DNA from: Marsupella aquatica
Taxonomy: Eukaryota; Plantae; Marchantiophyta
DNA length: 64,000 nt
Assembly: GCA_973895155.1 (NCBI GenBank)
Contig: OZ316893.1
Span: forward strand, 13,656,359-13,720,358
Direction: 5' to 3'
Position 1 is the stretch's first letter, and the number at the start of each line of letters is the position of its first letter. Below are positions 4,435 to 54,763 of this stretch, one piece after another. Below the pieces are notes generated by a model. It was not told the origin of the DNA. It saw only the letters and a program-made list of their open reading frames with translations, and made no database searches. The position numbers were made by a program, and so were the translations under genes.

Positions 4435-4471
4435 TAGCTTACTTTAGTTTACTTTAGCTTACTTTAGCTTA
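4435..4471. repeat. Minisatellite, ~10-bp unit (tagcttactt) x~4
   Basis: tagcttactt tagtttactt tagcttactt tagctta is visible directly. Confidence 0.75.
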
Positions 4472-6114: not shown

Positions 6115-6355
6115 TGTTCATCTACAACTATAATAAGAGATTTTATTTTTTTGTCCTTCGTCCCAATACAAAATGCTCCTGGGCAGGAGATATCCACAGC
6201 CGTTGGATTCTATTAGTTGTTTTTCCTGATCATTGATGGAAAAAATATGCACCCCTGACACATATGTGCTTCCCGTTGCTCCATAAATACCCCGGCCGAT
6301 ATCTATGGACCAGACCTCCTTGCACAGTGCAAAACACTGGCACAGGGCTCATACC
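6115..6355 (+). repeat. Dispersed repeat / putative non-autonomous TE fragment; second copy at ~12555-12800
   Basis: Shared blocks in the same order in both copies: catctacaa.tataat, gtcccaatacaaaa, acagccgttggattc, aaatatgcacccctg, atgtgcttccc, aaa/gcactggca.agggct. Confidence 0.6.
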
Positions 6356-6697
6356 TTATAATTGTGCACAATTGTATGTATATATGTCTTCCTATGGAAA
6401 AAACCCAGCCCTAAAACCATGTTATCCTAGTTCAACATAAGTTTCCATAAATCCTGTGCAAGCTTAAGAATCATATTCAAGAAAGTTTGGATCCCATTTA
6501 ATCTTATATCTCCAGAATTCACTAGTTCCCGAGATTTCTCGAGAAGTTTCCCAAAACTCATTCACTAGGCCAGATGAAGTTGTAGGGAAACTTCCAGTTG
6601 CGTCCCACACTTTCCAGACAGACTGCTCTTACTAAGTAGAAGTTATTGCTTACATTGTCGGCCCTTTAAAATCTGGAAGGTAACTTTCTATCAAAAT

Positions 6698-22624: not shown

Positions 22625-23329
22625 CTAATTTTGCCCAGCCTCTGCGTTGAAGGGAAAAACTTCGGCCGACTTGGCGAAAAAGCGCGCCCTCGCGTTGTAA
22701 TCAGTCGGAGAGCGACCGTCTTCGGCCAAAATTGAGTCCACTAACATCTGCATCGAAGTCCAGGCTTCATCCTTTTCGGAGCTGTAGGCCCTCCCTTGGC
22801 GGAAGAACTCAGCAATTAAGTTGAAATACATCGCTCGTCGTTGGTAGTCTTCGGCAGATTGGCCCTCCTCCTGCAGCAGCGCTTCGACAAGTCTGTCCAT
22901 GTCAACCTCCGTGATTTCTCCTCTGTTGGCCAACGCTTCTCTGGCCGACCAGCTGCTATCGTCGTTTAGCGTTGCGAGCTCGTCTCTGCCGGGCTCACTC
23001 CATCGCTGAGCTTGGAACAACTCGAACTCGCGGGAACTACTTGGCGATGATATTTTGGAGTGGAGAAGGCCGACGTCATCCTTGGCGGACTCGACACCCT
23101 GCCTGGCGAATACTTTCCCTCCTGCTCCTCCTATTCGGCCGGAGCGAACGAGCGTTTCTGTAGGATACGATGAAAACAGTGCGGAAAAAGAGCATTTCGA
23201 TGCACTTGTCCGAAGAGATCCCACTCCCTGCATTTCGATTGGCGCTCTTCCTCGTCCTCTGCAACTGCCACAACTACTCGTATAACATACAGCCACACTC
23301 GATACAGCAGAAACACCACAAGCGGCCAT
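22625..23329 (-). CDS. Uncharacterized, probably plastid-targeted protein (~234 aa) with two copies of a C-terminal S(P/A)xDYxxRAxxF motif
   Basis: Long open frame starting at ATG 23329 (MAACGVSAV...). The Ser/Arg/Ala-rich N-terminus resembles a transit peptide. Repeated motif: MDRLVEALLQEEGQSAEDYQRRAMYF and MQMLVDSILAEDGRSPTDYNARARFF. Confidence 0.7.
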   Translation of the reverse strand: MAACGVSAVSSVAVCYTSSCGSCRGRGRAPIEMQGVGSLRTSASKCSFSALFSSYPTETLVRSGRIGGAGGKVFARQGVESAKDDVGLLHSKISSPSSSREFELFQAQRWSEPGRDELATLNDDSSWSAREALANRGEITEVDMDRLVEALLQEEGQSAEDYQRRAMYFNLIAEFFRQGRAYSSEKDEAWTSMQMLVDSILAEDGRSPTDYNARARFFAKSAEVFPFNAEAGQN

Positions 23330-26100
23330 TATTTTCTCGGCGCACAAGCTCTATCGGCTTCAAACTCTCGAGCTACGGCGGCCGCAGCAACGAAGCGAGA
23401 CCAGTCGCCCTTTCTGGCCCGGACTTGAAACCTCCTCGGATTCTCGAACGAAACAGCGGATTCAGTCCTGAGATGTGGACGATGATTTCGTTCGGAGCTC
23501 ACTCTCCCTCCCCTCTCCAAGAAAACGGATTCGCTAGCAAAAACGAAACGCCTCGAGAAAATCTAGCGCAGAGCCGAGAGAAAAATGCACCAGACAAGCG
23601 TCCCAGAAGAATAAGCAAACCCAAACCCTTCTCAGTTTTCGAAGCGCCCGCGAGTTGGGAAACCAAATTTCGCAGCTTCCTCTCCACCCTCTCGACCGAT
23701 TCTCGAGCCAAACGCAACTCCCCACCGAAATCTCTCACAGAGACGAGAAAAAAAATGGATCACAGCGTACGAGAGGACGGAAACCAGATCCTACTCAGTT
23801 TCTGGGCACTCAAGAGATCGTCGGAGCCCAAATTTCGGTGCGCAGATCTTCGCATGCAGAGGGAGCAGAACGCAGCTTTTACGAGAAATTTATCGTTAGG
23901 AATCGTCATGTCCGCCTGTCAGGTCACGAATCATCCAGCCGAACGATCTCGCCAGCCGCCGAAGAGTCCACTCTCCTCAGTTCGCATGAAAGCGAAAGTC
24001 TCTCGATCGCTAACACGTAATCATCAATCAAATCTTCATCGAACATTGTAAACTACCCTATCCCGCCAAAAATGTCTTCCGTTCATTTACAAAACGAGAC
24101 ACAATGGGAACCAATCCAGGTCCTTCATTGAAAATTATTTTTTTCACACCGTCAGATCCTCCGGTACATCCCTTCTATCTCAGCTATCTGCCCAAGCTCC
24201 ACTTCACCTTCACCATCCCAAACATTATAATACCCAAAAACGTTATCTATTCCTTTACAAAATGACATTAAAGCAGGAGCCAATCCTGGTCTTATATCAA
24301 AAACTATTTTGACTCGTGGTTTTATATAAATATTATTATTATTACTATATTTGCATGGTCAGATCCTCCTTTACATCTCTTCTATCTCAACTATCTGTGT
24401 GAGCTCCATTGAGCCGTCCAGCACCTGTCCACACATTATAATACCCTATCCAACCAAAAACGTTTTTTACACATTAAATCTCCACACATTCTATCGCAGT
24501 TGTCTGTCCTAGTTTGCCCCAAACCTGCCTGAGACTAATTTAAAGATTAACTTAAAAAAATTTGCCTAATTTCAGAATTCTTATGTGTTCTCATTTCCCT
24601 TGTTTTGCGTTTGTGTTTCATTCCTTAGGGTATTGCATGGCTTTGTGAAGATGTCCACCAACGTTTACTAGCACCTAAAATTTGTTAGAGAAACTTGCAT
24701 GGCTCCGTTACCTTGTTGTGAGTGAGGTGGATCATGACAACACTCAACCAATGGCCAAGACAAGTGATCAAATCTAGTGGACTATAACTAGATTTGATCA
24801 AAAACAAAGAAGGGTGCAATAGTTGGTAGAATTCATTTGATAAAAATTACATACTCGAGAGAAGAAACAAATATACTCATTCTAAGTGTAAAACAATCCA
24901 AATAATATCCCTCCATGTCCCTGCATATAGCATCCTCATCCTGGAACATGAAAAGTTATTTTGTCCTCTAGCAAAAAGTTTAAGTTTTTTAGTGAAATAC
25001 AGGTGATCTAATTTGTTTGTGGCAAATATAAATAGTACATTGATTAGGAAGCCTGACATTGAAAAGTTGTGCACATAAGGTACAAGAATAAAAATACACA
25101 TGTAAAGAAAATTAATAATGAACAGGAAAATTTTAAGTCTATGATATTGGGTTCTGCATATACTATACACCAGTAAAGATACTTATGTATTTATCTTAGA
25201 TAATGACACTCAAATAAATTAAAACCATAAATTTAGGACACAAAACCATGAGTAGAACTTAAAGACATGAGGAGTGCACTTTAATTAGATCATTTCTTCT
25301 TCACTAAGGGCTAGAACTTCTGTGAGCTTTGTTAAAGGGTGGATGATCAAAAATATATCAAAGATTGAAAATTTAGAGGGGTGCCAGATTAAATTCAAAA
25401 TCTAAAGTATACAAGGGATGCACCCTGGTAAGACACATTGAATTAAAATACACAAGAAAAGAAGTTTGAATAAGACAAAATACTGGAAGATGGATTCACC
25501 ATATAGCAGTTTCATTCTTGAATCTGGATTTTTGAAGCAGTACAATATGAACAATTTTCGTAGAAAAAAATGAACATCACTTGTGTAAATAGTTCAATAA
25601 GCAGTTGGACAAAGGGGGTCAAACACAGAGAAACAAAGGGGAGGTAAAGAAGAAATGGGAAAGGGGAGGGTGTTGGACCTGATCTACTTTTTGGGTTTTG
25701 CTTATTGGGTTTGGTCAGCATTGTGTTTAGTAATAAAATCCCCTTGGGTTGGAGATGCTCTAAAAGAACAAAGAGGTTGTAGTACATGAGTTTTTGGAGT
25801 GAGGATGTACACTCTTTACAGTACTTAGCCACACATGCTCTATTTAGTGTGAGGTTATATTTGGGGTAAGTGCCAAAAGTGTGTAACACTAATGTGATCA
25901 CAAGTCAAATAGTGTCCCCTTCACTTACATTTTAAAAACAGAATGGGCATAGTCAAACCTTGGATATGAAAATAAATGAACCCGTGAAAAATATTTGAAT
26001 ACATCCTTACTTTACAAAATTCACATATCCTACATATAGCAAACTTCATAAATACCTTATTACAATATGGCTTGCTGGAAAGATCTGTTTGACTCTCTTT

Positions 26101-26283
26101 TATCAGATTATGAATAACCCATGTCTCATAGAAGCAACAAACTACCATCATATTTAGTCACATGAAACTGGTCCCCTTTGTCTCATCTTTATGAGACTAC
26201 TTACAGCCCAAAGAGAAGTGGGTTGAATCTGCTTTTCACCTGGTTCATCAACATCACTTTTATTAGATTATGAATAACCCATG
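26101..26283. repeat. ~160-bp tandem repeat; the second copy is split by the Gypsy insertion and resumes at 35795
   Basis: 26105 agattatgaataacccatgtctcatagaagcaacaaactacc...catcaacatc is matched by 26265-26283 plus 35795-35930. Confidence 0.9.
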
Positions 26284-26889
26284 TGTCGTGCGCATACAGA
26301 TCGCTACACAACATACATCGCTTGTCACATACATCCAAACATAGTCACACTGCCACATCACAAACACAAGAGAATGGAATACAAGTGGAACTCATGTCCA
26401 CACATGTCCAAAACCCACAATAATCTCCACACAATCGGCACAACGATCCCGGTCAACAATACCCCATCGATCCCGCACCGATCCGATCACACACGTATGT
26501 CAAGCCAACGCACCTTGCACTACTCAAGGAATCCACGTTACACAAAGCGGAGCTCACAGCCACCATAGCCACTCAAGCTCCTCTCTCTCCAAGGCTCAAC
26601 ATTGAAAGATGACCTTTCAATGCCTCACAAGTGAGAAGTACCCTCTCACACAAACCTGACGAAACCTTATCGGCTCCAATAGCACTCATACCAAACATAC
26701 ATACTCTAATAGCACGATATACTACTACACTACTCAGAATGGTGTGACAGCTGTCGTGCGCATACAGATCACTACACAACATACATCGTTTGTCACATAC
26801 ATCCAGACATAGTCACACTGCCACATCACAAACACAAGAGAATGGAATACAAGTGGAACTCATGTCCACACATGTCCAAAACCCACAAT
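26284..26889 (-). repeat. 3' terminal repeat block: segment a (26284-26421), segment b (26422-26749), GC spacer (26750-26751), second segment a (26752-26889)
   Basis: The two a copies are 138 bp each with 3 transition differences. Segment b matches 35467-35794. Confidence 0.92.
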
Positions 26890-26900
26890 TGCCCCCCTAG
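26890..26900 (-). promoter_or_regulatory. Polypurine tract (CTAGGGGGGCA on the element sense strand)
   Basis: The G-run lies immediately upstream, in element orientation, of segment a. Confidence 0.75.
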
Positions 26901-27062
26901 CTGGGAGTAAGGTCCCCTAACTCTAGCTAGCCATGAGTTTTACAAGGTTGATATACACCTTTTTAGGTGTGAAGATCAGGAGGCCGGGTGCAAGGGAGCC
27001 CCATCGATCACCTACCTGCAATCCATATCTGCCAAGAGAACACAAATGATAACTAGTCGGCT

Positions 27063-27584
27063 TCACCGACACTGAGGACACAACCATGATCCACTAGGAA
27101 TCACCTGCAATGGTGGTGTCAAACATGACATGTGCCATCCTCTAGAACACTTATCACAAATCAACATAGTAGTTGCTCCCTGAGCAGATCCACACAACAT
27201 ACATTTCAAGCCAGCACGAACATGTGCCAAGCTTGGATCTACTGTACCATCAATGTTGGGAAGGTGATATGGTGCACAGTTGCGCACATGATCCTTCCAA
27301 ACCATACCATCGCGTCCCTCCAACATCAGGACACCAGAAGGCCATACTTCACGCACACGTAAGATTGTCCGGCCTGTGGTCACATCAAGTGTCATGGGTG
27401 CTGTCTGCTGCAAATAAATATAATCACCAGGATGAAATCGCCGAATGCTTGCACGGTAACCTCCTCCACGAATAGTGGCATACCTCAAAGTATCACGATG
27501 TTGGGCAATGGCAAGGTTGTCGAAAGCCATGGGCATCACTCGCTGAAATACCCGTGCTCTCTCTGAACCTACACCTTGACCCAA
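27063..27584 (-). pseudogene. Integrase C-terminal region plus PHD finger (frameshifted relative to the integrase core)
   Basis: CMLC...MLICDKCSRGWHMSCLTPPL..IPSGSWLCPQC is a C4HC3 PHD pattern. Confidence 0.88.
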
Positions 27585-28633
27585 ACATCAGGATCATCCA
27601 AGTTCACAACTGATGCAGCATCACGACGAATAGCTGCTGGCAAATCTGGCTCTCTACCATAGAGCAAAAAGTAAGGTGAGAAGGATGCAAGTGATGCTTG
27701 CCGACTGAAACGGTAGCCCATAGCTAACCAAGATAGCTGGAGATCCCAATCTCCCAGATGACCAACCTGCAAGCCATACTTACGCAATCCTCTCTTCACA
27801 GTTTGCACAACTCTCTCAGCTAATCCATCTGCCTCAGGATGATCACGAGAGGTAGTACGATGATCAATCAGAGCTTGTTCACACAAACTCTCAAACTCTC
27901 CACGAAACTCAGTTCTCTGATCAGTCAACACCTCAGCTGGTGCTCCAAAATGACTGAGTACACGATCCAAAAATGTAGCAGCAACTCCTCCACTGGCTTT
28001 ATCTGGCAACGCCACTAGCTCAATCCACTTGGAGAAGTGCTCCACCATGACCAAAACATACCGATTATGACGTTGGGTAAGAGGTAATGGACCAGCAAAA
28101 TCCAAACTCCAACGATATCCCAAACCCATGATCGGCAACGGGTGCAACTGGGGAGTGGGAGCATTAAATGATGCTCTCACTCTATCACATACCACACACT
28201 TAGCTATCAACTGTTGGACATGAGTGTGCATACCACGCCACCAATACTGTGTCTGCAGCAAGCTGTAAGTGCGCTTTACACCAAAGTGACCCAACTCCTC
28301 GTGCGCATGTCGCACCAAATGTACTCTCTGTGATGGTTTTGGGACCACCAACACTCTACCATCATGCAGTACTCTCAAAAGATGGTTTCCCTCCCATTGA
28401 AACCTCTTGGCTCTCTGTAGAACCCTGTCACGTTCCTTGGCATCAACACTCCCAACAATAGAACCACTGTGCAAATATTCCAACACTCTCGCATCATTAT
28501 GAATATCTTGTTGTCCAGTAGTTACCTCACTAACATCCACATCTGAAGACTCATCATCCACTCCATCCAATGAGGTAGAGTCCACAGATCCACTGTATGC
28601 TGGCACCCAACAAAGAAGGCAGATGCATGCCAT
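27569..28633 (-). pseudogene. Gypsy integrase (HHCC zinc finger + DDE core)
   Basis: HEELGHFG...CVVC, SLDFAGP, VLTDQ, HPEADGLAERVV, SPYFLLYG. Confidence 0.93.
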
Positions 28634-28689
28634 CCTGGCACCATCTCCTTATCTGACTCATCATGCCATCTGGCTCCAGTCTCATCTTG

Positions 28690-30144
28690 CTGACTGGTAC
28701 ATGGATTGCGGCTTAATCCATCTGCATCCAAGTTCACTTTTCCAGGCCTATGCACCACCTGGAAATCATACTCCTATAACAACAATGCCCATCGTGCAAG
28801 CTTCCCTGTAAGTTTGTCAGACTCCATTAACCACTTAAGAGGCTGATGATCAGTGATCAAGGTGAAGGGGTTATCAAACAAGTAGCAACGAAAGTGTGCA
28901 ACAACCCACACTGCTGCCAAACACTCTCCCTCATAAGAGCTATACTTAGCCTCTGCTGAATTGTTTGATCTACTGGCATAAGCCACAACAAACTCATTCC
29001 CCTCATCATCCTTCTGAGTCAGCACTGCTCCAAGTCCTACTCCACTCCAATCAGTGTGTAGCTGAAATGGTCTGCCTGAAATGGGTCTTCTCAAAATAGG
29101 GGATGATGCCAACCTTTGCTTCAACTCCTGAAAGGCATGCTCCTGGTCATCACCCCAAATCCATTCCTGATCCAACTTAGTGAGTATGATCAAAGGTTTA
29201 GCAAGCTGGCTAAATCCTTTAACATACCTCCTGTAGTAGCTCGCCAATCCCAAGAATGCACGAACTCTACTCACATCAGTAGGACAAGAAATTTGTGTAA
29301 TGGCCTCCACTTTAGTCTGTTGTACACCTAATCCCCCTGGGTATATAGTGTGGCCCAAATACTCAATCTGGTCTTGGAAGAACTTACACTTGCCAGGATG
29401 GAGCTTCAACCCATGTGCTCTCAATCTCTCCAACACAATCTGCAAGTGCTGTTGATGTTCTTCCACAGTAGAAGAATAGACCAAAATATCATCAATATAA
29501 CATCTGACAAAATCCAAACCTGCAAGGATTCGATCCATGACTCTCTGGAACTCAGCTGGTGCATTCTTCAACCCAAATGGTAAGAATAACCACTGATACA
29601 AACAATCTTTGCCATAAGAATCAATCCCCTAGAATGCTGTCTTGGACCTGTCAACATGCCTAATTGGAAGCTGATGGTACCCTGCCCTCAGATCCAATGA
29701 ACTGAAAACCTTTGCATGCCCCACAGCATCAAAGATCTCCTCAGGTGTGGGCATGGCATATCGATCAGATTTTGTCTGGCGATTAATAGGTCTGTAATCA
29801 CCACACATGCGCCTATCTGTGTAATTGCCATGCACATCCTTCTTGGCTGGCATCACTGTGGCAGATGCATACTCCCCATATGAAATCTCCACCAATCCAG
29901 CCTCCAACAAATCTTGAGTTTTGCTTTGAATCAGAGCTCTCTCCATGTCACTATAATGGTATGGTCTACGAAAGATTGGCGCATCACTAGCCAATTCAAT
30001 CTGAATACCAGGGCCCTTCAGTGTCCCCAAATCCTTCATGTTGAATGCAAAACAATTCCAATAACTCTTCAAGAATCGATGCATGCAACGTCTCTTCTCC
30101 CTTGTTAACTTAGGGCCAAACTGTGGTTCCCAACTCTCCACCAA
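28690..30144 (-). pseudogene. Gypsy reverse transcriptase and RNase H, interrupted by in-frame stops
   Basis: RMCGDYRPIN, SLDLRAGYHQL, KTAF*G, LPFGLKNAPAEFQ, YIDDIL, LHTDWS, YEGECLA, LITDHQPL, LARWALLL*, HRPGKVNLDADGLSR. Confidence 0.93.
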
Positions 30145-30399
30145 ATCCCTAATATCTCTTTGTAGGGTAGAAGAGATAGCCGATGATTGCTATTTAGCAG
30201 TAGATTGAGCAGTCCCTTCCTGCTCAACAATCTGTCCAGCCTTGGCCAATCCTGCCATAGATCCATGGACTGTCTGCTCGCCCCCAGCTGTGGTCAATAC
30301 TGTCTCAGTGGACCGCAAGCTCACCAAGGGACAATCAGTAATTCCAGCAGAGCACATCCGCAACTGTTCAGCTACTCTCAAGCTGATAATCCAAGTCAA

Positions 30400-31340
30400 A
30401 CAATTCAGGTCCATTGCTTGACCAAGAACTTGGCGCCGCAAACCCTCTGACACAGAGACAACTGCAGTGGTGCCAGTCAAAAATCCCATAGCACGCTCTC
30501 TCTCATCAACAGTAGGCTCCACTAACTGCTGGAGAGCTGTGTCTCACACAAGTCCAGGGCCACCTACTCTGAATGCATATGAAGCAGAGTGGCTTACAAG
30601 AGTGGGTAATGCACAACGTGGGCGCCCAATTGCATTGACCATTGCCAATGGAGGTCTATCAGGTTGGGTCACACCCTGTGCCCGACGCCCTAGATCCAAA
30701 ATATCATCCACCACTAAGGCTGGTGAGCGTGGAATGCTGTCAAATGCGCGCTTCAGCACCTCATATGGGATCAAATTAGTCCACCACAAGCGTGGATAAT
30801 GTGCACGAGAACCCACACGTGCAGCATCCAATAACACAGCAGGTCCAATCCAAGACCTCACCTGGTGAACACTGGCAATAATTCGACTACGATCATCACC
30901 TAACAATGGCACATTCTCCAAAATGTATGCTGGAGACTATGTCTGATGTAGCTAGAGATGACGCAGCACCCGTAACATCTCCCAAAACAATGCAGAGCGT
31001 GGATCATGAAGTCCATGCCCAATGCCAGCTCTAGATTAGCCCTGACATGGCCAACCAGCAATCACCAAATCAATGGGGCTAACACGATGTAGATGATCCG
31101 CCCCCAACAATGAAATATCAGCAGGTAGTGCATGTTGATAACCACGAACAACATCCACTGGCAGCAATTGTGGATATCTATCCACCAACATAGCCACATG
31201 TCGCAATGAGACTCTCCGTGCTGTCTCATCTGTCTCCACATACAAATAACGACGCACATGAATTCCTGCCTGAAGAACTGTAGCCAATCCAGTGCTAATC
31301 CCACCAAAAAGATCCAACAAACAAATACCCTCCGGTGGAT
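30400..31340 (-). pseudogene. DNMT3/DRM-like C5 cytosine DNA methyltransferase domain within the Gypsy polyprotein (in-frame stops)
   Basis: Motif I LDLFGGISTG; YLYVETD; motif IV IDLVIAGWPCQG; DPRSALFWE; motif VI ILENV; motif VIII RAHYPRLWWTNL; motif IX ERERAMGF; motif X RRQVLGQAMD. All are in one frame with the flanking protease and RT ORF segments. Confidence 0.88.
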
Positions 31341-31739
31341 ATTGCCAAGCAATAGGAGTGGTATCCAATGGTGAAAGAGTCACAGGTCCATCTGCAAGAG
31401 ACTGCTCTGCTCCTGACTGTGGTGTAAAAGCATGACGCCATGCATCATGTACCAATCATGCTGCTGCCTGTGGCAAGGCTTGTGCAGTGCCCCACACTGG
31501 TGGCACAACACTGCCAACAGGTAATCCTCGCATGATGTGCTCCTCATGAGACTCCTCCAATGGTGGAACATCGGCTGCATGCGCATTACCTTCAATCAAA
31601 TCATCAGGTCCAGCAATTACACCACTGAATGCTGCCAAAGATAATGGTGAGGATTTAGGGCCTCCCACAGGTCCACTAAATCTCACTGAAAATTTGCTCA
31701 ATCGAGCATCTCCTAACTGCCAATCAGGTCTATATGACA

Positions 31740-32110
31740 CTGATTCCTCCCAAAAATCAAGAATAAATCCCATGGGGTAGAGCACTGTACATCCCACCAA
31801 CACATCATATGACTCTGCCTTAGTCAAAATAGCTCACGCCTGTATCTGTGAGCTATCTGTGGTATGACCTTCCTGAATCCTCAAATCAAGTGGTCTCCTG
31901 GTGATATGCTGTGTAGGTGTAGGTCCCCCCAATGAAGTCTGAATGGGAAAGGGACAATCCTCCAAATCCTTTGGACGGAATCCCAATCCACGTATGGCAG
32001 ACTTCCCCAACATCAAGGGCTGAGCACCAATATCCAATAACACTCTCTCTGGCTGGTATACTGCTCCAAAAGGCCCAACTAATCGAAAGATACCACTCCG
32101 ATTATCCAAT
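31740..32110 (-). pseudogene. Aspartic protease domain of the Gypsy element
   Basis: VLLDIGAQPLMLG (D-T/S-G-like) and downstream YDVLVG. Confidence 0.75.
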
Positions 32111-32939
32111 GACACAACACTAGGTTTAAACCTAGTCCTCTCAAATGCAAGGCGTGCTGGTAAATCCACCAACCTCGCTGCTGCTGCATGCCATGTCTCA
32201 CTAGTAGCAGTAGGTGGTATGGTCTTCACTGCTTCAACACTGCAAGCTGCTTCTGCATGGGAAGCAACAACTGGAGTGTCCTCACAGAGTGTAGCTGCCA
32301 ATCTGAACACTTCTGCAGGACCAACTCCCAAGTTCAGCATGTCTATCGCTGAAAATAATGGGGCGCGTACCATGGCAGTAGCCGCCCCCAGCAAGGTACC
32401 TATCATCCCTACTGCATCACTACCTGATTCTGCCAACTTACACACATCAGGGTTTGTCTGAACCGAATTCATAGAGGCAGTGTGAACTGTCTCTGACAAT
32501 GTAAAAGACTGAGGAAGCTTTGTCTACCGACGTGCATCCCCCCTCTATGGATCTAGCTCCACTACTGCTCCTTGGGGCTCAAGAGCTTTGGCTGCCCCAC
32601 GTGTCAAAGCTGCTGATGCATCAATATGTGTAGTGCCACACATGAATCCCATGGTGGCAAGATCTCCATCAGCTCCATAAGATGTGGAAGGACCATGGGA
32701 TGTGGAAGGTCCATAGGATGTAGATGCCCATCACCAGAAGTAGGTCTCACCTGGGAACTAGCCATGGCAGCTAGCTGTTGCTCCAATTGAGCAATCTTAG
32801 CATCCTTTAGATCTATGGTTACAGCAGGGGCAGCGTCACCTCCCTGTCTCCCTGCATGTGGCATGCCACGACCACGTCCACCACCTCTACCTCCTCCTCC
32901 TCTTCCCTGATCATGTGTACAGGATCCTCCTCTCCGTAA

Positions 32940-34181
32940 CTCAGGATGGAGTGAGAAACACCTATCTTTGGTGTGTCCAGGAGCTCCACAATGATCACAC
33001 TGTCACTGATCAGGTGCTGCTGCTCCTCCTGATCCTCTGTGATCTGGGCAATACCTCTGTGCATGATCCCCACCACAGGTCCAACATCCTGACTGCTGTC
33101 TAGCATAAGAGGGCACAGGTCTCTGGCTGGTAGACTCTCGTGCAATAGGCTTCTCCCTTTGGCTCTTCCGTGCAATAGGCTGTGGTGTAGATGTAGATGC
33201 AGCCTTTGGTGCTTCCTTGGCAAATCCGGAAGTCACCACCTTCTCATTCACCATATTGAGCTCAATACGCTCAGAAAGGGTGAAAACAATTGCTAATGTG
33301 GGATCTGCATCCCTAAGCAGAGTGACATCTCTCACTCTGCATCGCAATTCTCTGTCTAGAATTGCATACCAAAACTGGACTGCTTGAGCCTCTATCACTT
33401 CCTTGGTGACAGTGATCAATCTGCGCATACGAGTATATGCCTCACGTAGACTCTCTCCAGTCTTGCGCTGGAACTCCTGGAGACCCTTCAACTTATCAGT
33501 TCTCACACCCTGATAGTTCTGCTTCAGTACCTCAAAGAATTCCACCACAGGATTAAATGCTGGCGTAACTCCAGTTCCTGTCATAATCACACTGGCAGGA
33601 GTAGCGGTGGATGCTACTGGAGTGCTGCTAGTGGATGGTGTGCCACTCTGGCTAGTGCTGCTAGAAGAGGCAGCAGCTGTGGCAATGGGTTGGGCAGCCG
33701 CACTAGTGCCATAGGTGATGGACACGTAATTAGGTGACCAATGCTGCCTCCATGCCTCAATCTCAACCAAATGAGTCTTCCGAAACTCATGGTAGTCATC
33801 CATGGGTGGCCCCACCAAATGCTGAAATAATCCCTTCCATGCCATGAAAGGGGTAAACAACGTGGCGTTACGCAATGTCTGTATATCGCACCACGTATCA
33901 AACTCCTGGATGAAGTCATCCAGATCAATTGTGCCAACTGCACCAGAGTATCGTCGTGGGCCCTTTGTAGCCCCGTACATCTCGTCCATATCCCACAACA
34001 AAGATGCAACCACCTGATGACGAGGAGAACTGGTCATTGAGTCCTCGTCGGAATCACTGTCTAAAGCTGCACTGCTGACTGCTACCAATGCCGCTGGCCA
34101 AAACTGTGCCCCACTCCGAGTGAAACCGGTTCGTCGTCCATCGGGTAATCCAACAGCACCAGAAGAATCCATGGTGACCAA
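32940..34181 (-). pseudogene. Gag with two CCHC zinc knuckles
   Basis: Retrotransposon gag-like QRKTGESLREAYTRMRRL; knuckles CWTCGGDHAQRYC and CDHCGAPGHTKDRC (~32957-33000). Confidence 0.85.
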
Positions 34182-35454
34182 CCCTAACCTAATCTATGTG
34201 CTAACCCTAAGGGCAATCTATCCCTGTCAGCACCACAAGCACTCACCATGGTGTGTTGGGCATCACTCCAACATCACCAGGAGAGAAATACATAGCACAA
34301 CTAGAATGTCCGGTTGCAAACCCGGATCACTCCGGTAGAATCAAGCGCCAACGCCAACTAACATGGCGCATAAACAGGAAGCATGTGTGGAGAGGATCCA
34401 ACAACAAGAAGAGGATTTACCACAACTCTCCACACCAATCAATCAGAAATATATGTAAATAATATGCATATAGTTCAATGTAGGGCCTTCATAATAGGTC
34501 TCAAGAATCCCGCGTCAAATATTCAAGAATCCATCGCAAACTAGCTAAAACAGAGTATCTAGATGAATTCAAAAGTGCATAAAACCCCTAAGGCCTCATT
34601 CCTTGGACATCAAATGTGGAAGGAAGCATGTACAATGCACCACATAGAAACTTGCTAGTTAAGCGCATGAGAGGAGGAATAACTTTGGGATGGGTGACCT
34701 CTCACTTGTCATTATGCACCAAATCTGCCACTCCAAAATGGCAGCACTTGCAACTACTCCTCACGTACCAGCAAGCTGGCCCGCCCGCTCCTGCTCCGCC
34801 CTCACGCCCCTCGTCCCGAGTTGCCTCGAAGCCTCGAAACGCTGAGATGAGCCAAAGAGTGAGCCCTTCACGCCCGCAACGCTTCGCTATGCCGAATCGA
34901 GTTTCAGATTTCCGTCTCTCAGTTTCCCTTCACAGAATGACGGATAGTCGGGAGTTGCGGATCAGCTGCGAGCAGTCGGCGCCCTGTCGATCGGATTCGC
35001 GAGTTGCAGCAACTTCGCGCGGATTGGCCCTTCCACATAATCGCGCGGAGCATCGGCAGATCGCCACTTCACTTGCGCCTTATCACAGTAGTCGAAAATC
35101 AGATCTGAAGCCTCGCGGATGACTTCCACTGTTCGACGATCTGCCAACATTCGCGGAATGCTTTCCTCCACGAAAACCAACATTCAAACTCGGCTACAAT
35201 AGCAGCGTTATGTGCCCAGATCCGGTGACACAATGAGCGATCTGCGATCTTCAACGATCTGCGATCTCTCTCCTCAAAATAGCATTCGCCAACACAAACT
35301 GCAGCAGATTGAAGGACTAACAATCTACTCAATGAGATCCGAGATACCACGGATCCATGCAACAGATTGAAACGATTTCCACAAACCGTCACCAACTCAA
35401 TCAATCCGAAACGAACTTCTGTTTGCACAGTCCGCACAACAGAGTTCGCATCTG

Positions 35455-35466
35455 ATCTTTCAATGT
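35455..35466 (-). promoter_or_regulatory. Putative self-priming PBS (ACATTGAAAGAT) complementary to a 12-mer inside segment b (35644-35655)
   Basis: Exact 12-nt inverted match abutting the 5' repeat. There is no TGG-starting tRNA PBS. Confidence 0.7.
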
Positions 35467-35794
35467 AATCTCCACACAATCGGCACAACGATCCCGGTCA
35501 ACAATACCCCATCGATCCCGCACCGATCCGATCACACATGTATGTCAAGCCAACGCACCTTGCACTACTCAAGGAATCCACGTTACACAAAGCGGAGCTC
35601 ACAGCCACCATAGCCACTCAAGCTCCTCTCTCTCCAAGGCTCAACATTGAAAGATGACCTTTCAATGCCTCACAAGTGAGAAGTACCCTCTCACACAAAC
35701 CTGAAGGAACCTTATCGGCTCCAATAGCACTCATACCAAACGTACATACTCTAATAGCACGATATGCTACTACACTACTCAGAATGGTGTGACA
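35467..35794 (-). repeat. 5' terminal repeat, segment b only (328 bp)
   Basis: Matches 26422-26749 with about 5 substitutions. Segment a is absent here. Confidence 0.92.
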
Positions 35795-37829
35795 CATGTC
35801 TCATAGAAGCAACAAACTACCATCATGTTTAGTCCCATGAAACTAGTCCCCTTTGTCTCATCTTTATGAGACTACTTACAGCCCCAAGAGAAGTGAGTTG
35901 AATTGGCTTTTCACCTGGTTCATCAACATCAAGAGCCACTCTGACAATACCATCAATGTCAAGGGCAACCTGCTTCCTTCAAAATTCACTCAGTAATTTG
36001 CTATGATATTCTGAAGCTCAATTGTGAGTTGGTTTGTAGACCATACACCATTGACATTAAGTGACAAACTGGTCCTTATCATTGATTCTTGTGCATAAAA
36101 CATGCCATGTCAGTCAACAAAATTGTTCACCTTAGCTAGAGAGTCCCTAGCCTATGTCAAAAACTAATGCTTGCCTGGATCTATCAATTCCCTACAGGTA
36201 CCTGGTGTCCCAATTTTCATGCACTGTTCAGCAAGCAACATCTCTGCCTTCTTCTCTTCCCACCTCTTTGTCTAAACATCTTTTACCTTTGAAATCACAA
36301 ATGAATCACACTGGTGGCAAAGGTAAGTTGAATTTGATACCAGATCTCTCTCATAATGTCTTACAAAGCAGCAATGGTACCTGGTATATGGTTGTGCCCA
36401 TAGTAATTGTCCATCAATTGAATCAGTTAACATTCAAGAACAACTGACTTTGGAGAATTATATGTGCATGATGCTCAGCCAAATTGGCAATGTTGGGCTC
36501 TTGGAAAGCACACCTAACGAAGTTTCTAATGGTAGAAGGATGGGGAGTTTTCATCAATGATGAGAGAGAAAGACAAAAATGAATATTTCACTGGTTGCTT
36601 CAAGAAAACAATAGCATAGTTTGACTCAGCAAAAAAAACAATTCTAGACTTGAAATTGTCTAGTGCAACAAACAAAGACAAAAAGATACACATACTACAT
36701 TACCAGTGACATTTTGACATAATCCTGATTCTCTTTCCCTTGCTCTAGCAAATCCAGCTATGATGAGCAACCCACATCCTTCCCATGTTCTCAACCAGTC
36801 AATCTTGCACAAACATTAAGCCAAAACACAAGGAAAACTTTACTACGCACATATATACAAACACATATGGCTGCTGATATGCATACCATTGGAATGGGTT
36901 ACCACTAAAAACATTAACACCTCTAACTATCAATTTTTAACAAATTGGAGGTGACAGTAAATAGTGTGACTTGTCTGGAAATTCAAGAGCTACCCCTAAT
37001 TAGTGTGTGGATGTGACACTAATTGCTTAGTGACAGTAAGGCCCAACTCGCAAGGCCCAAATTGCATGTGAAGGGGTAATCGTTGCTTGCAAGCAAACAA
37101 CAAAAAACTTACCAATGTGAGTTTAAAAAAAAAACCAATTCACTATCAAAGTTAGTCCATAGCTAGCCAAAACTTGGCTAATAAAATACCATTTTTGGAA
37201 CTACTCTTTTGGCTAGCCAACTCGCTAGCCATGTGGAGTCTTAGAAATTCACTCAAAATATAAAAGTGAGGCAAACAAACAAAAGAAGTTAAAAACCACT
37301 AGGGACTAGTGAACAACATTCTCCTTGCTCTCAAAAATTCCTGCCTGCTCGCATGCTTGGTTTGTAATATGGCCGGCTTTCTACAGGGCTGCCACATGCG
37401 AGTTGGGTCTAAATTCTGTGAGGAGTGTACCTTAATTTTGAACTTCTAAAAGAGAACCGACCAGGTCCACCCCAAGCCTCAATCCCATCCATGATTTAAG
37501 CTTATCCTAAAATGGTGCCTTCACACATGTCGCTGGGCGTTTGTTCGTCGTCATTCTGACCCACTTGGCTCATCTCCACAGCAAATCATATGTGGAAAGC
37601 CCGATCCATCGCGAAAAGGTCTGAATTTGCTTTACTGTGTAGCGTCGATCGTCTCTTGAAAGTCTTCCTGTCCATTTGTTTGTGGTTCCGAGTTTCCGAC
37701 CCACTTCGACGAATCTTCCCTTTGAATTGATTTCTGTGCATTTGCCCTATCCATCCATTCCTGAAAGCTTGAAGCGAAGATGAACATGACGAATCGCAAA
37801 CCAGTCAAATGCACCGGCTGATGCAACAG

Positions 37830-48406: not shown

Positions 48407-51400
48407 TTAAAGTGGCTTCTTTGCAGTTATGAGAGCAAATTTGATAAGCCCTTTTTGATAGCCTTGGACCATCAAAGCCATTGCGAAAGCTCCCTTCAAA
48501 GTCGTCCAACCTATCAATAACCACATGAAACAAGCTATCACTCCTTTCTAAATAGATGAAAGGACTAGCTAAACAAATCTCGCTCTCGGCATTCCAGGAT
48601 ACAAAGTGGACCCCCACTGCACTCAACGGATCAAAGTCCAATACATGATCTTAAAACGGGTTTAAACCAGTAGCTGAAATTTGAAGATGAGGTTCTGTAT
48701 CAAGTCAACAAATGTTACAAGCCCTTAACAGAGGTTTTAGGGGTTTGGGATCGTACATCCATTTGAAAGGAAAATATTAAGGATGAAGGTAGAGAAATTC
48801 CGCACCTGCTTTTGCCAGTCCAATCAAGCCTTTTGGGCTCAATGCTGACATAATGACGGCAGGCCAGAAAGGAGTCACGTACTCAGACCAATCAGCTGAT
48901 TTCACATCCTGTTGAATATAAAAATAATAATAAGCTCACGAAAGGCAAAATCGAAAAAGACGAAGCATTTTTACCAGTGCTGATGAAGTCCAATATAAAT
49001 GGGCCACGGCAGTGCCTGTAGAACTGGGTTAAGATTCACTGTATAATTACTTCCTTCTCATAATGGCACCCCACAAAACCACATCCACACCCACCCTCGC
49101 GCACATGGAGGATTTGAACCTTGCACAGATCTTGTATAGAAGAAGAAGGTACCTACCTTCAGGTTTAAGCCTTCTGCTATTTTCACGTAATCAGAAGGAG
49201 AGCACCAGGCAGGAAGATAGTAGGCATCACAGATTTTATCCAACAGTTCCTGCCAGAGAAAACCAATCAGTAGTTGGAGAAATTTTGCGACATCTCTGAC
49301 AAATTATCCAGCATTGACGATGCTTCAAGATGTTCCCAGCTCCATCAGTGAAGAAAGTTTCCTGTACATTTTAGGCTTCCAAAAGGGGAATCTTATTTAG
49401 GCTTACTTGTTCATCTGCAGTTAAGGATTCTTCCCCCGGTTGGAGATCTCGATGGCACCATGTAACAATCAGAATGTGACCATTGGGAGCTGTGACTCGT
49501 GCTAACTCCGTCAAGAACTGAAGAGAAAGACAACACGAGGATCACCTAATTAGATCGCATCAGCAAGAGTATACCTTTAGAAACATTAAACAAGTGTCTG
49601 AGCAGATCAAATGTTACAGCCTCGACTTGAAACGCAATCTCAGGGACGGGAAAGTTTCCTCCTACCATCAACGATCAACATGTGAATGTTATCACTATGA
49701 CACAGTGCAAAATTTTGGCGCTGGTCCTGTTTCTATTGAATCTTAAATCCTTTGAGAAACTTATACACAAATTCAAACAATTTTCTCAGCTGAGTTGAGC
49801 AATACCTTCGTTTTGTCTGGCATGTGCTCTCCACTCTCCATTGACCAGACAAGATCGAATTCACCATCTGCAAAGGGCTGGTTCAAAGCATCCGCTACCT
49901 GGAAACTGACCTAATAAAATAGCAATAGTTCAAGTGAGGGCTAGTCAGGACGTGCTAACAGAATCCAGTGTACTTTATATATAACTAGGGCATTGACTCT
50001 TGAGAGTGATTTGGGCATTGCATCAGTGGGGCTTAGTTCTCATACATGCTTTGATGGATAGAGCTTGGTGGATAGAGAAAAAACAAACGATAAAACTTGA
50101 ACAAGTAAGCCACAACACAGCTTCTCCTGACCAGGCCACCCGTATTTTCAGAATGGGCAAGGACTCAGGAATAGCCCTGCAAAAGAAAGAAGCAGACGGA
50201 AGGTCACCGGATGTTCTTCATACCTGCTCTGAAAGGCCTTGTTCTTCTGTCAAAGAGGTAGCTCGCTGGGCTTGTCGTGGACTCAGAGTAATCCCCTTGA
50301 CCTTCGCACTGTACTTACGAGCCAAATGACGAGCACTGCCCCCAATTCCGCATCCCACATCCACTACAGTCCGTGGCTCATTCTCACCCTCTGTGAGAAT
50401 GATCTATTGTCAGAACTTTAGGATTTCCTTGCAGACTCTTCCAAGCAATGACACTTTCGCCCGTTTCCGCTACTTGTTCTGTCAATCCATTACTACCGTT
50501 GTTGTTACTCGGGACCTCTCAATCTCAGCCATTCCCAAATGCCCAATTTTACGACAAACGTCAACTACACAAAGAACGTTAGTCGAATTATCTGGGCAGA
50601 GAAGGAAATTTCTACGAAACTGCAAGATTATGCTTTCCCTTGTTGTGTTCTTAAACGCTTTGCAGATTCCTTTCCAGCCAAGGTCCAGGGACCATTCATA
50701 TGACTTCGAAGGCTATACAAATAGCTTTGGCCTCACTGGTGTTAGTGGACTAAATAGGTTTTCCAGAGATTCAATGTCGACCTCTCGATGTTTGCCCCGT
50801 CCAAGAAACCCAAGAGGAGGTGGCCATCTTGGGGTCCATCGTTTAGTCTCTCATTCTTCACCTCCCCGCATCCCACTTAGTCTACTGAAACGAGCATTTG
50901 TGGAAAAGGCCTTGGCCCTCCAGAAATTGAAGGTCAAAGTTCAAATCCTCCGGCCAAGAAACTCAAATCTGAATGATTCAAGGAGCACGGTAACATATTT
51001 AGGAGGGATGATGGGCGGGCTACGTACCAGGAATTCCGGCCCAAGAAAGACTCTCTTCAATCATTCGGACTTGAGCAGCCAGGTGCCCTCCTCCATTCTC
51101 AGGCGAGTCTCCGGGCGTGTAATAGCCGTGGTGCATGTGCTCTCCCCAAATGTCCTCCCACACTCCGGAAGAGGAGTCATAGAAGTTGGCAATGCCCTCA
51201 TTCAGCTCCACCACTGTACGTTCTTTTGCGCCTGCTGCTGCTGCTGTAACGACGGAATATCTGCCAGCCTTGGGAACGTTTCTCCTCCTGGAAGGAACGG
51301 CAGCTGACGCAAATCCTCTCTCGGTGTTCAAACTGGTCGGCCTACTGGCTCCCACTTGCGGACGAGAATGGCCATTCAATCTGCTTATGGAGCAAGCTCC

Positions 51401-51415
51401 AGATATGGCTGACAT
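48407..51415 (-). CDS. VTE4: Gamma-tocopherol methyltransferase, plastid-targeted; ~7 exons (approx. 51415-51026, 50393-50223, 49911-49806, 49518-49408, 49250-49156, 48909-48807, 48511-48407)
   Basis: GIANFYDSSSGVWEDIWGEHMHHGYY, VDVGCGIGGS, GITLSPRQA, DALNQPFADGEFDLVWSMESGEHMPDK, VTWCHRDL, ICDAYYLPAWCS, ADWSEYVTPFWPAV, GLIKFALIT. Confidence 0.95.
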
Positions 51416-52687
51416 TTTGCTTAGAATCGTCTCCGAGGCGTTGCAATGCTCGCTTGCTCCCTGCTCGAGGTCGGTATCTCCGAGCTTTATGACCCAACTG
51501 AAGGCGTCTCACCCCTCACTGAATATGGCTGTGCTCGACGAACATATAATTAGACGCTTTTGGTTGCAGCATTTCCCTTCTGCGTGTCATCAGTATGAGC
51601 TCTCTCTCTCTCTCTATTGTGGACCCTCCATTTTCTTTTCCACATGCAACATCAGCATCCACGAAAGAGATCGAGTCCGTTATGGCTTGACGACTGTTTC
51701 TGTTGGGTCCGTCAAAATCTAAAATTAAGCATTGTTGTTCGTGTCGTATAGCATTATTTGGCCGAACATCTTTCACGTAGACCGATAACATAATGGTACT
51801 CTATGACGCACACAATTTAGTCGGCAAAATCAGAGTGACACGTGCTTCGTTGCATGCCCTACTCGTTGACCCTTTGAGTACAATGGGGTTTTTCTAATGT
51901 CTCACAACTTGGCCTCGGTTTCACTGTAAAGATGGATGCTCCTCTTTCGAGTGGCATAAATCAGTTATCTTCATTCCCTCGTATGGACGAGTGCGGTTTG
52001 ATGTAGCATGCTAGGACGGCGAGGAAAAATGCCGGGATTGATAACAGCTTTTCGCATCATTTCAGATTTTGAGAGGTCGTACCAAAGAGAATAATGTGGA
52101 GAGAGAATGGGATATAGGGAACATGCAACCGCAAACTTCCACTTGTACTACACTTTATTGTTTCTGAAGGCTAGATGTACGAAGTTGGGGGATGCCAAAG
52201 TGAAATCCATGAATGCTTATTTGGTGAAGAATTAAGTTCTGAGGAATTCCCAAGACATAGTTTCGGCGCGTCCGTGCGACCACCGTTCCGACAGGACACG
52301 CTGCACTTGGTTGTTCTTGGCCTCCAGTCCTTGTTGTCTTTCGGTGGCCTTCAAAGGGATCCGGATGTCTAAGCAACCTGCACGACATGGGGCTTCAGAG
52401 GAATGCGTCAGTTGTAATTCCCATGACCCCCAGCCTTCGTTCTGTTTTGCTGGCATTGAAAGCGATGTGGTTGTAGTTTAAACTTCTACAAAATTGAAGA
52501 TGACCTCAATCCCCATAAACATTAGCGTTCTCTTGACAGTTTGCCTTACTTTGTAAATTGGAAGAAACTCTCAAGGATTTTTCCGCCGAGGAGTAGCTGG
52601 GAGCACCATTGTTAAGAGCAATTACTCATAACCAGCACTGACTCCGGAAGATTTTACTTTTCAGAGACTGAGTTTTGCGAGTCTCAG

Positions 52688-53350: not shown

Positions 53351-54763
53351 CTAAAAGAACACAAAATGGGTAGCAAGGTTTGTGACAAAAGGGTCTAGGA
53401 GAAGCCTGGTCAAAAAATAGAACAAGACTCCAAGAGAAATGGAAAATGGAAGAGCTGGAAGTGCACGACGCCAGACAGCTAGCAGCAACAGCGTTGCTCC
53501 CAGCCCAGCAACGATTGCGAGATAGCACGCATAAACTGTCATCATATCATACATAGCAGCCCTGCCCACCAGAACACTGTAAAATATGAAGTCACCCAGC
53601 CCCAATTTGATTGAACCTGACAGCACCCCTCCCTCCCCATCGCCAGCAACATTATCTAGAATATCCTCGATGTTCGTCCCGCCTCTAGTGCCAGCTTCCA
53701 TGCCATCCATGGCTACTGCAGACTGCGTTGCAGTAAGTGCTTGAGCTTGAGTCTGATGGCTTACCAAGGCCAATGTCTCCTCATCTTCACCAGTAGCGAG
53801 AGTGCTTACTGGCAAAACATCATTATCACCTGCAGAAACTAGGGAAGGAGGACGAGCCACACCTTGTACCTGACCTGATTCTGGCCTCGGTAGATTCCTC
53901 TGAGAATGTCCAGCAGGTGCCAGCCCAAGTTCAGTCGAATTACTTCCCGGAGCACCTGCACCAGGTCTTCTTCTCCATCTCGGAGGCCGCTGGACAGGTT
54001 GCGGAGGCCGAATTGAAGTAACAGAACCATCACGTGAGCTTGCTTCAGGGGCGGCTGTTTGGGGGACGTACCCTGGCCGTGTAACTGGCCTAGCTTCATA
54101 AATCAAGGCTGGAATGTCTTCATCTCTAGCAATAGCAAGCTCAACGAGCATATTTAGAGGTCCCCCAGGAACCAGAACAGCAACCACATCGTACAAAGCC
54201 ATGGCCAGGAGGAGAATCCATGTTGTCCACTCGGGCAGCATAGTAAACCAGTATGCCACAAGGACACCGATAAGCACAAGGTAACCCTGAGTGAAGACAA
54301 TTGGCATTTTGCAGAAGAACACCGCCATAACGCCCACTGTTGCAAAATTGTAAAGAATTATGCTAAATGTGATAACATCAATGGGGATGGAAAAGTACTG
54401 TACCAGTTGGATGGCCAAGCCACCCCCCATGTAAGCCAGGACCATGAAAGCCGAGAAACCCATGTACCCTTTGAGAATCCTGTTACATCTAAAGTAGAAG
54501 AGAGCCACAAGGACAAAGGTGACCACAGTGACAATTGCCACAAACACCAGAGCATTCAACAGTGCACCTCCCAATTTCTCTGAAAATGAATCTGATTCCT
54601 GCTCATCGTACACCAGCATGGCAATGCTCGCAGCTGGAGCATCCCCTCCGTGTGGAACGAGGGTGTGCACCAACAGCACTACAAGAAGCATACAGAGGGA
54701 GACTGGACTGATAATCCCTAAAATCTCTGCTCCCAGATGATCCAACACACTGCCTTCTGCCAT
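53351..54763 (-). CDS. PSN: Presenilin (gamma-secretase catalytic subunit), intronless CDS
   Basis: SPVSLCM, LPEWTTW, ALYDVVAVLVPGGPL (YD), IPALIYE, IKLGLGDFIFYSVLVGRAA (GxGD), ALPALP (PAL). Likely start is MAEGSVLDHLG at 54763. Confidence 0.96.
   Translation of the reverse strand: MAEGSVLDHLGAEILGIISPVSLCMLLVVLLVHTLVPHGGDAPAASIAMLVYDEQESDSFSEKLGGALLNALVFVAIVTVVTFVLVALFYFRCNRILKGYMGFSAFMVLAYMGGGLAIQLVQYFSIPIDVITFSIILYNFATVGVMAVFFCKMPIVFTQGYLVLIGVLVAYWFTMLPEWTTWILLLAMALYDVVAVLVPGGPLNMLVELAIARDEDIPALIYEARPVTRPGYVPQTAAPEASSRDGSVTSIRPPQPVQRPPRWRRRPGAGAPGSNSTELGLAPAGHSQRNLPRPESGQVQGVARPPSLVSAGDNDVLPVSTLATGEDEETLALVSHQTQAQALTATQSAVAMDGMEAGTRGGTNIEDILDNVAGDGEGGVLSGSIKLGLGDFIFYSVLVGRAAMYDMMTVYACYLAIVAGLGATLLLLAVWRRALPALPFSISLGVLFYFLTRLLLDPFVTNLATHFVFF

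Follow-up and report, generated by a model that had tools for sequence, protein, structure and literature searches.

The locus described here raises again a question that has stood since 2018, namely why a transposon carries an enzyme that normally silences it. We examined a 64,000-nucleotide stretch of the genome of the liverwort Marsupella aquatica (contig OZ316893.1; hereafter the window), in which a Gypsy-type retrotransposon encodes a cytosine methyltransferase (DNMT) between protease (PR) and reverse transcriptase (RT). Elements of this Gypsy-DNMT3 kind, repeat layout included, were already published in 2018; what is added here is a conserved and apparently leaky stop between DNMT and RT, a sister architecture in chlorophytes, and target-site duplication (TSD) evidence for a circle-type integration. 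The reading that we favor, at a probability of roughly 0.55, is that the window element is a dead copy, in a liverwort, belonging to an ancient Gypsy lineage of green plants in which Gag, PR and DNMT form the first reading frame, that this frame ends at a leaky TAG-CAA stop, and that the enzyme methylates element cDNA.

The Gypsy domain set of gag, PR, RT, RNase H (RH) and DDE integrase (IN) is present in order, and the whole element reads A1, PBS, gag, PR, DNMT, RT, RH, integrase, PHD finger, polypurine tract (PPT), B1, GC, A2 and B2 (Table 1). The integrase C-terminus of the window element gave no match to a chromodomain, and a PHD finger stands there instead. Nine in-frame stops, four of them within the DNMT, interrupt the 1266 codons from PR to RH, frameshifts separate gag from PR and RH from integrase, and a further one lies within the integrase tail; judged by these lesions the window copy is a dead element. 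Over 464 positions, its terminal repeats show 8 differences. In the near-intact relative L024 and the fully intact L087, the gag reading frame is the PR-DNMT frame. The PBS is complementary to the interior of repeat A, which suggests a self-priming type of arrangement; the complementarity spans 12 nt in the window and 17 nt in locus L059, and at most 10 nt in five other complete or near-complete copies. No tRNA gene lies within the window, where neither a tRNA nor an Rfam match was found. An inverted repeat, CATTGAAAG-N5-CTTTCAATG, lies within repeat A (35599-35655), includes the PBS-complementary bases, and may mark the transcript start and regulate self-priming. The insertion site is a tandem duplication in host DNA, of about 165 bp, whose second unit the element interrupts (26117-26283 and 35795-35931).

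Table 1. Features of the retrotransposon, in window coordinates.
Feature	Position	Strand	Remarks
Target-site duplication CATG, 5' side	35795-35798		4 bp
Whole Gypsy-type element	26284-35794	-	9511 bp; TGTC...GACA ends; layout A1-coding-B1-GC-A2-B2
Terminal repeat A1	35466-35794	-	329 bp; ~98% identity to A2
PBS position	35455-35466	-	12 nt complementary to 35644-35655 within A1
Gag	32700-34172	-	two CCHC-like knuckles; one stop; frameshift near 32700 at short tandem duplication
Aspartic protease	31714-32139	-	triad DIG in window copy; DSG or DTG in relatives
DNMT3-like C5 cytosine methyltransferase	30364-31344	-	motif order I-X, no permutation; four stops from decay; Tyr for Arg in motif VIII
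Conserved amber stop, CARYYA context	30184-30192	-	TAG CAA TCA; ends Gag-PR-DNMT frame; predicted readthrough site
Reverse transcriptase	29314-30054	-	YIDD at 29499-29488
RNase H	28702-29169	-	
Integrase	27572-28510	-	H2C2 zinc domain; DDE core (SLDF, LTDQ, LAER)
PHD finger, integrase C-terminus	27066-27203	-	PF00628, 1.3e-11
Polypurine tract AGGGGGGCAA	26889-26898	-	immediately ahead of B1
Repeat B1	26752-26888	-	137 bp; att-like GCACGACA at its end
Palindromic B1-GC-A2 junction GACAGCTGTC	26746-26755		right end joined to left end
Repeat A2	26421-26749	-	
Repeat B2	26284-26420	-	joined to A2 at PBS and PPT boundaries, resembling an end-to-end cDNA joint
Target-site duplication CATG, 3' side	26280-26283		4 bp

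The first-pass annotation of this DNA had reported C5 methyltransferase motifs in canonical, non-permuted order, in frame with PR and RT and with an intact catalytic cysteine, and in all of this it was correct. The DNMT, like protease and RT, is read from the minus strand, and the three share a frame; the DNMT motifs follow one another as I (LDLFGG, 31317-31300), II (YVETD, 31242-31228), IV (AGWPCQG, 31059-31039, Cys codon intact), VI (ENV, 30918-30910), VIII (AHYPRLWWTNL, 30804-30772), IX (ERERAMGF, 30504-30481) and X (LGQAMDL, 30426-30406). The Pfam search that had been proposed as a check was run, and PF00145 matched with an E-value of 1.3e-10 (41.7 bits against a cut-off of 22). The top PDB sequence match of the window DNMT alone is DNMT3A (1.6e-10), and a profile of 34 family sequences ranks DNMT3A (1.8e-27) ahead of DRM2 (7e-13), M.HhaI (7e-10) and DNMT2 (1.8e-6). 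Foldseek also placed DNMT3A best (9.4e-17) for an AlphaFold model of a natural relative, P0038 (pLDDT 71), and the ESM Atlas returned C5 methylase clusters alone. Of the label DNMT3/DRM-like, therefore, the first half holds and the second does not: the domain is to all appearances DNMT3-like and not DRM-like, because the motifs run from I to X without permutation and the DRM2 score falls far below that of DNMT3A. A circularly permuted order, as in DRM, was rejected on the same motif order. Motif VIII, described at first as DNMT3-like, is present, but its first Arg reads Tyr in the window copy, where 34 of 34 divergent relatives have Arg (alignment A3); the window enzyme is therefore probably inactive despite its intact Cys.

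Relatives of the element are numerous. Protein searches returned 36 longer relatives and 160 of similar length (120 of these listed), and the named hosts among the listed matches were Marchantia polymorpha, M. paleacea, Calypogeia, Riccia, Sphagnum and Mesostigma. A metagenome scan found 97 loci, of which 80 were kept; loci of sufficient length read gag-PR-DNMT-RT-RH-IN-PHD, and the name moss-type is used for loci because the linker matches a Sphagnum fallax protein. The stop-free consensus suggested earlier was replaced by natural intact copies. A DNMT profile search gave 476 clusters (50% identity) at an E-value of 1e-30 or better, a count which, like those of all the family searches, was baited with the DNMT and which DNMT-less sister copies would escape. 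Among the best 150 of these clusters, the DNMT lies after PR or before RT in 21, and after RT/RNase H or before integrase in 86, with the remaining 43 being DNMT-only fragments; Mesostigma, Scenedesmus, Closterium (three), Klebsormidium nitens and Cymbomonas were the named hosts among 30 proteins looked up. A large sister group has its DNMT between RNase H and integrase and a C-terminal PHD finger (P0030, P0033, P0387 of Scenedesmus and most of P0306-P0443), an architecture for which no report was found in the parts of the literature covered. The lineage, with 476 clusters (the best 150 examined) and two architectures, is thus far wider than published.

In the DNMT tree, of 119 rows, the two architectures are set apart, with 2 changes compared with 28.5 after shuffling, and the same is seen in the RT-RH tree, with 1 change over 50 rows; the deep splits of the DNMT and RT trees are concordant, and the two domains have descended jointly. 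In another tree of 29 rows, midpoint-rooted and lacking a host DNMT3 outgroup, a branch with support of 99/96 joins the window DNMT to proteins of Klebsormidium, Closterium, Mesostigma, Marchantia, Calypogeia and Sphagnum in a group of 18 rows. The K. nitens PR-DNMT protein GAQ93235.1, which we infer to be a copy of KnitGypsy-Dnmt3, falls within this same group under the midpoint root and aligns with the relative P0002 at 31% over 571 aa (5e-60), spanning both PR and DNMT. The link to Klebsormidium retrotransposon methyltransferases drawn in the first-pass annotation is borne out by this branch, and by sequence the window DNMT and GAQ93235.1 appear to share common descent. Viral contigs contained no relative of the RT query and, with the DNMT profile, six weak phage-type methylases (31-53% over short stretches); no close viral source was seen among them. 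In GTDB genomes, one true element, L087, was found in an assembly labelled as a cyanobacterium, together with one weak bacterial methylase. L087 (positions 1-9285), a natural copy that is fully intact, lies on a collapsed circular contig of that bacterial assembly and is likely eukaryotic contamination. A different bacterial assembly is the named source of protein P0060. Marchantia and Sphagnum gene models (P0003, P0005, P0045, P0049 and others) are Gag-PR-DNMT frames of the element or pieces of them, labelled either hypothetical or "DNA (cytosine-5-)-methyltransferase", and some of these models join across the conserved stop. Bryophyte DNA methyltransferase annotations therefore include element proteins and can distort DNMT inventories. 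The occurrence of the family in Marchantia polymorpha places it in a genetic model with methylomes and methyltransferase mutants.

We also examined the stops that interrupt the coding region. The domain had been described as broken only by point stops and as part of Pol; decay stops are indeed present and the DNMT does share the frame of RT, but one stop, at 30192, is by comparison of copies conserved across the family and not a product of decay, and this amber codon in its CARYYA context separates DNMT from RT. L087 is open from within Gag to the PHD finger except for a single stop, TAG CAA TCA, between DNMT and RT, and its context is identical to that of the window although its identity to the window is 49% in DNMT and 66% in RT. 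The corresponding contexts are TAG CAA CCA in L024 (which has two stops, at 3192 and 4509), TAG CAA CTA in L079 and TAG TAG CCA in L062. Of the 80 loci, the site could be aligned in 59, of the moss type (the other 21 did not align), with 39 TAG, 19 TAA, one GAG and no CAG, and CAA follows directly in 57 of these 59; the CAA CCC context of the large moss-type family is one base away from the CARYYA consensus. The two closest proteins (85%) terminate exactly at the window's TAG at 30192, and many relatives' proteins terminate 70-180 residues past motif X. The DNMT-RT linkers measure 309, 366, 408, 435 and 486 nt, and the frame is kept in all. The exact Type I, TMV-like signal, UAG followed by CAR YYA, is present in the window, L087, L024 and L079, whereas CARYYA follows TAG in 44 of 10,112 background cases in the loci and none of the window's other eight stops. 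The distant relatives P0282 and P0287 are without the stop and have one ORF. A stem-loop 3' of the stop was rejected as a readthrough stimulator, its signal being weak (z -0.6 to -2.5 in seven sequences).

With the stop conserved between DNMT and RT, the DNMT closes the Gag-PR-DNMT frame, and RT-RH-IN-PHD likely needs readthrough, as the CARYYA context suggests. UAG-CARYYA gives readthrough of about 6-32% in plant reporters (6-10% for stable lines, with transient assays reaching 32%, in the sections of PMC2754532 covered). A readthrough stop here would put the DNMT at Gag-like levels, and in predicting the dose and location of the enzyme it narrows its role. The window site resembles the TMV replicase in UAG followed by CAR YYA (PMC2754532, sections covered) and the env of SIRE1 in being a candidate for stop suppression in a plant retrotransposon (cited in the part of PMC2829016 covered); it differs from both in belonging to a Gypsy element, where it would determine how much Gag-PR-DNMT is made relative to RT-RH-IN. 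No report of such a readthrough site was found among the titles, abstract openings and passages covered, which included few subscription papers.

The proposed comparison of dN/dS was made for 15 pairs chosen from the 80 loci. Between lineages, dN/dS of the DNMT was 0.125-0.17, far under 1, in nine pairs with finite dS (1.7-2.3, near saturation), with dS saturated in two more; that of RT was 0.04-0.06 where finite. Among dead copies within one family the values were 0.57-0.72 for DNMT and 0.32-0.62 for RT, as expected from decay, and the close pair L024-L079 gave 0.43 for DNMT vs. 0.10 for RT on few changes. Amino acid identity to the window is higher in the DNMT (64-70%; 51% in the distant L062) than in PR (51-59%) or the PR-DNMT linker (41-42%). 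Across 34 relatives (31-72% identity), no variation is seen at the catalytic or recognition residues Cys of motif IV, Glu of motif VI, both Arg of motif VIII and Thr of the recognition loop, nor at three further columns, and the catalytic Cys is present in 71 of the 72 loci that cover its position. These ratios indicate that the element family keeps its DNMT under purifying selection. Of the three outcomes that the first-pass annotation had set as refuting, a missing PF00145 match and a dN/dS near 1 thus did not arise; the third, a lack of the domain in most copies of the family, was probed with DNMT baits.

Base composition does not identify the target of the enzyme. At four-fold sites, C before G occurs 4 times in 99 in the window and 7 in 172 in the near-intact L024; in the fully intact L087 it is barely reduced (62/173 vs. 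174/365 for CHH), and in the same window it is low both for a host gene (9 of 52) and for a DNA transposon (3 of 22). CG depletion thus appears not diagnostic of self-methylation, because the loss, pronounced in the window and L024, is slight in L087 and also affects the host gene. Decay between the repeat pairs of nine elements (41 of 157 CG, 20 of 74 CHG and 117 of 1187 CHH sites) is consistent with host silencing and says nothing on the element's own enzyme.

The closest published system is KnitGypsy-Dnmt3 of Klebsormidium nitens, which, in the sections of de Mendoza et al. (2018, PMC5890265) covered, has a non-rearranged Dnmt3 in Pol, DIRS-like repeats and a Ka/Ks below 0.2, the authors placing the DNMT in one ORF with RT and RNase H; the word "Marchantia" is absent from the main text of that paper. 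The window element shares with it the Gypsy domain set, a non-permuted, intronless DNMT3-like domain, A-coding-B-A-B repeats and purifying selection. However, the algal DNMT is described as lying in the ORF of RT and RNase H, whereas the liverwort element has the conserved TAG-CARYYA stop between DNMT and RT; the hosts are an alga and a land plant, respectively, and DNMT identity is 36%. SymbioDIRS-Dnmt3 of Symbiodinium likewise has a DNMT3 in a retroelement with A-coding-B-A-B repeats, but it carries a tyrosine recombinase and represents an independent capture, as opposed to the DDE integrase and 4-bp TSDs found here (PMC5890265, sections covered). DIRS, Ngaro and PAT elements also differ in having a tyrosine recombinase where the window element has an rve DDE integrase and a 4-bp TSD. 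Mammalian DNMT3A/3B and moss PpDNMT3 match in motif order and are the best sequence and fold matches (TM 0.57/0.74); the window DNMT differs in its identity of about 22%, its place within a polyprotein, and the lack of PWWP, ADD or plant companion domains.

EpiLTRs of Cymbomonas and Euglena likewise pair a cytosine DNMT with a chromatin-reader domain in an LTR element, but their enzyme is DNMT4-related and comes with DAM and a chromodomain, and their authors separate them from Gypsy-DNMT3 (bioRxiv 10.64898/2026.05.21.726589, parts covered). Gypsy-7a_cRei of Chlamydomonas is a green-lineage Gypsy with a PHD finger, but no DNMT is reported for it in the section covered (bioRxiv 10.1101/2022.06.16.496473). 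The chromoviruses Chlamyvir and Tcn1 have a C-terminal integrase chromodomain in place of the PHD finger, although Tcn1 resembles the window element in its self-priming-type PBS (PMC6317226, part covered); the words "methyltransferase" and "PHD" are absent from the main text of PMC6317226. The parts covered of PMC12344493 and of bioRxiv 10.64898/2026.05.21.726589 mention "streptophytes" and name no land plants. We found no report of a land-plant Gypsy DNMT in the literature covered, which included parts of PMC10952607, PMC11982613 and bioRxiv 10.1101/363937 and few subscription papers.

The ends of the element bear on how it integrates. The A-coding-B-A-B layout of the window copy, bounded by a 4-bp TSD, is complete in five moss-type loci as well (L031, L034, L059, L061 and L080), and the TSD is exact in the window and in seven of the nine loci with both ends, with one mismatch in the other two. 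Among 80 loci, none of the 23 5' ends with flanking sequence has B before A (some of these are one insertion assembled twice), and a B-A-B 3' end is found in seven. Together with the window, L013, L031, L034, L059, L061, L071 and L080 are split-repeat Gypsy elements with the intact palindrome always on the 3' side. Reverse transcription would yield an LTR of the form B-GC-A; the integrated form corresponds to a circle with two end-joined LTRs that has been opened at GACAGCTGTC, in the 5' copy of this palindrome, where the opening step is one that we infer. Eleven loci end in one B followed by other DNA, an A-coding-B form (L019, L020, L021, L028, L029, L030, L052, L053, L055, L069 and L075), and L028 and L075 among them have exact TSDs. 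These could be either one-LTR circles integrated at the palindrome or products of B-by-B recombination. The sequence CACGACAGCTGTCA is present in the window junction, L003, L013 and the distant L087.

Under the favored reading, ribosomes would make Gag-PR-DNMT and, at about one tenth of that amount, a readthrough polyprotein with RT, RNase H, integrase and PHD finger, so that DNMT would be made at Gag-like levels. The protease would free the DNMT, whose flanking linkers are poorly conserved, within the particle, in which it is likely packaged, and the enzyme would likely methylate the element's own new cDNA before integration, presumably in CG context by analogy with SymbioDIRS and moss DNMT3. 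Methylation may benefit the element by protecting a circular intermediate that is long-lived or by letting element DNA pass for that of the host, and the circularized cDNA would then integrate via its internal att palindrome. Related retrotransposon DNMT3s, SymbioDIRS-Dnmt3 among them, carried out de novo CG methylation in yeast; the Klebsormidium domain gave no methylation there, a result which its authors deem inconclusive (PMC5890265, sections covered). A high dosage of DNMT appears not to be needed everywhere, since P0282 and P0287 are without the stop and 86 of the best 150 representatives have the DNMT after RNase H or before integrase.

Other roles for the enzyme have to be weighed against cDNA methylation. 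It might act together with the PHD-bearing integrase on host chromatin, methylating the insertion site, its vicinity or wider host DNA and not free cDNA. The PHD finger that ends the integrase and the position of the DNMT immediately ahead of the integrase in many relatives are in keeping with this, as is the de novo setting of CG and CHH marks by moss DNMT3 (PMC6453930, part covered); however, the stop uncouples DNMT from integrase in the window lineage, and particle products of the Gag frame would be closer to cDNA than to chromatin, and we regard a role on host chromatin as doubtful. The DNMT might instead decide which att site is used, by methylating one of the two cDNA att palindromes (the first to become double-stranded) so that integrase opens the other; the outcome, A-coding-B-A-B, would be the sole arrangement that retains the 3' R region. 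We consider such a choice of ends unlikely. The uniform 5' ends (0 of 23 with B before A) and the seven loci ending in B-A-B agree with such a choice, CACGACAGCTGTCA (with CG and CAG/CTG) has been retained in both L087 and the window in spite of the scarcity of CG in the window lineage, and DNMT and repeat layout co-occur in Klebsormidium and, separately, in SymbioDIRS; but integrase binding would also demand that the palindrome be conserved, and the order of reverse transcription alone can produce the asymmetry. The combined proposal, that a Gypsy lineage as old as green plants has kept its DNMT3, that a bryophyte-type leaky stop yields Gag-level enzyme and that cDNA methylation fixes which att palindrome is opened, is likewise unlikely; if true, methylation would steer integration by way of a circle in an LTR lineage that has hundreds of divergent members from chlorophytes to mosses and liverworts. 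That the domain methylates element RNA, or serves as a nucleic-acid-binding protein, would fit Gag-like amounts, a dose which far exceeds the presumable need of a cDNA of about 10 kb, and would fit the inactivity of the Klebsormidium domain on yeast DNA. It is highly improbable, though, given that the catalytic residues are all invariant and that the family profile favors DNMT3A over the tRNA enzyme DNMT2 by 20 orders.

The conserved stop itself could be bypassed by splicing, with TAG|CAA as a 3' splice acceptor and a spliced RNA that might skip part or all of the DNMT. In Ogre elements the gap between protease and RT is spliced, and the site ends in AG in every lineage. TAA variants, considered as proof against splicing, were rejected as such: they make up 13 of 39 non-redundant copies and arise through 12 changes on the tree, as in shuffles, so that they represent scattered decay and not an active subfamily, and do not show the AG to be dispensable. 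However, the window, L024 and L087 lack a U-rich sequence upstream of the site, conservation is seen in the bases that follow it (CAA-YY), and in each of the five lineages the TAG shares its frame with the coding sequence on either side, which makes splicing distinctly unlikely compared with the readthrough that we propose. A host gene fragment captured only once, or an artefact of assembly, might be suspected because DNMT served as bait in the searches, but the same intronless PR-DNMT-RT order recurs at dozens of loci, and several genera have named proteins with it, at a dN/dS of 0.13-0.17; relatives at many loci, low dN/dS and the intact L087 refute this explanation, to which we attach next to no probability.

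Finally, the window contains other genes and elements. Two first exons of plastid-targeted-looking host genes lie on the minus strand at 51020-51508 and 22625-23350; the former gave no Pfam match and resembles gamma-tocopherol methyltransferase. An open frame of 981 codons on the plus strand (6578-9523) encodes a non-LTR-type RT (PF00078, 1.5e-10) and had no endonuclease match in Pfam. A convergent Harbinger-like pair, consisting of a Plant_tran transposase (3.9e-55) and a NAM-associated protein (57496-58386, plus strand, and 59278-60336, minus strand), lies between 800-bp direct repeats at 55965-56764 and 60618-61426 (82%). An intact, intronless presenilin gene at 53351-54763 (minus strand), which marks the host as most likely a leafy liverwort, shares 90% identity with Calypogeia fissa; the figure is 62-65% for Riccia and does not exceed 56% for named mosses.
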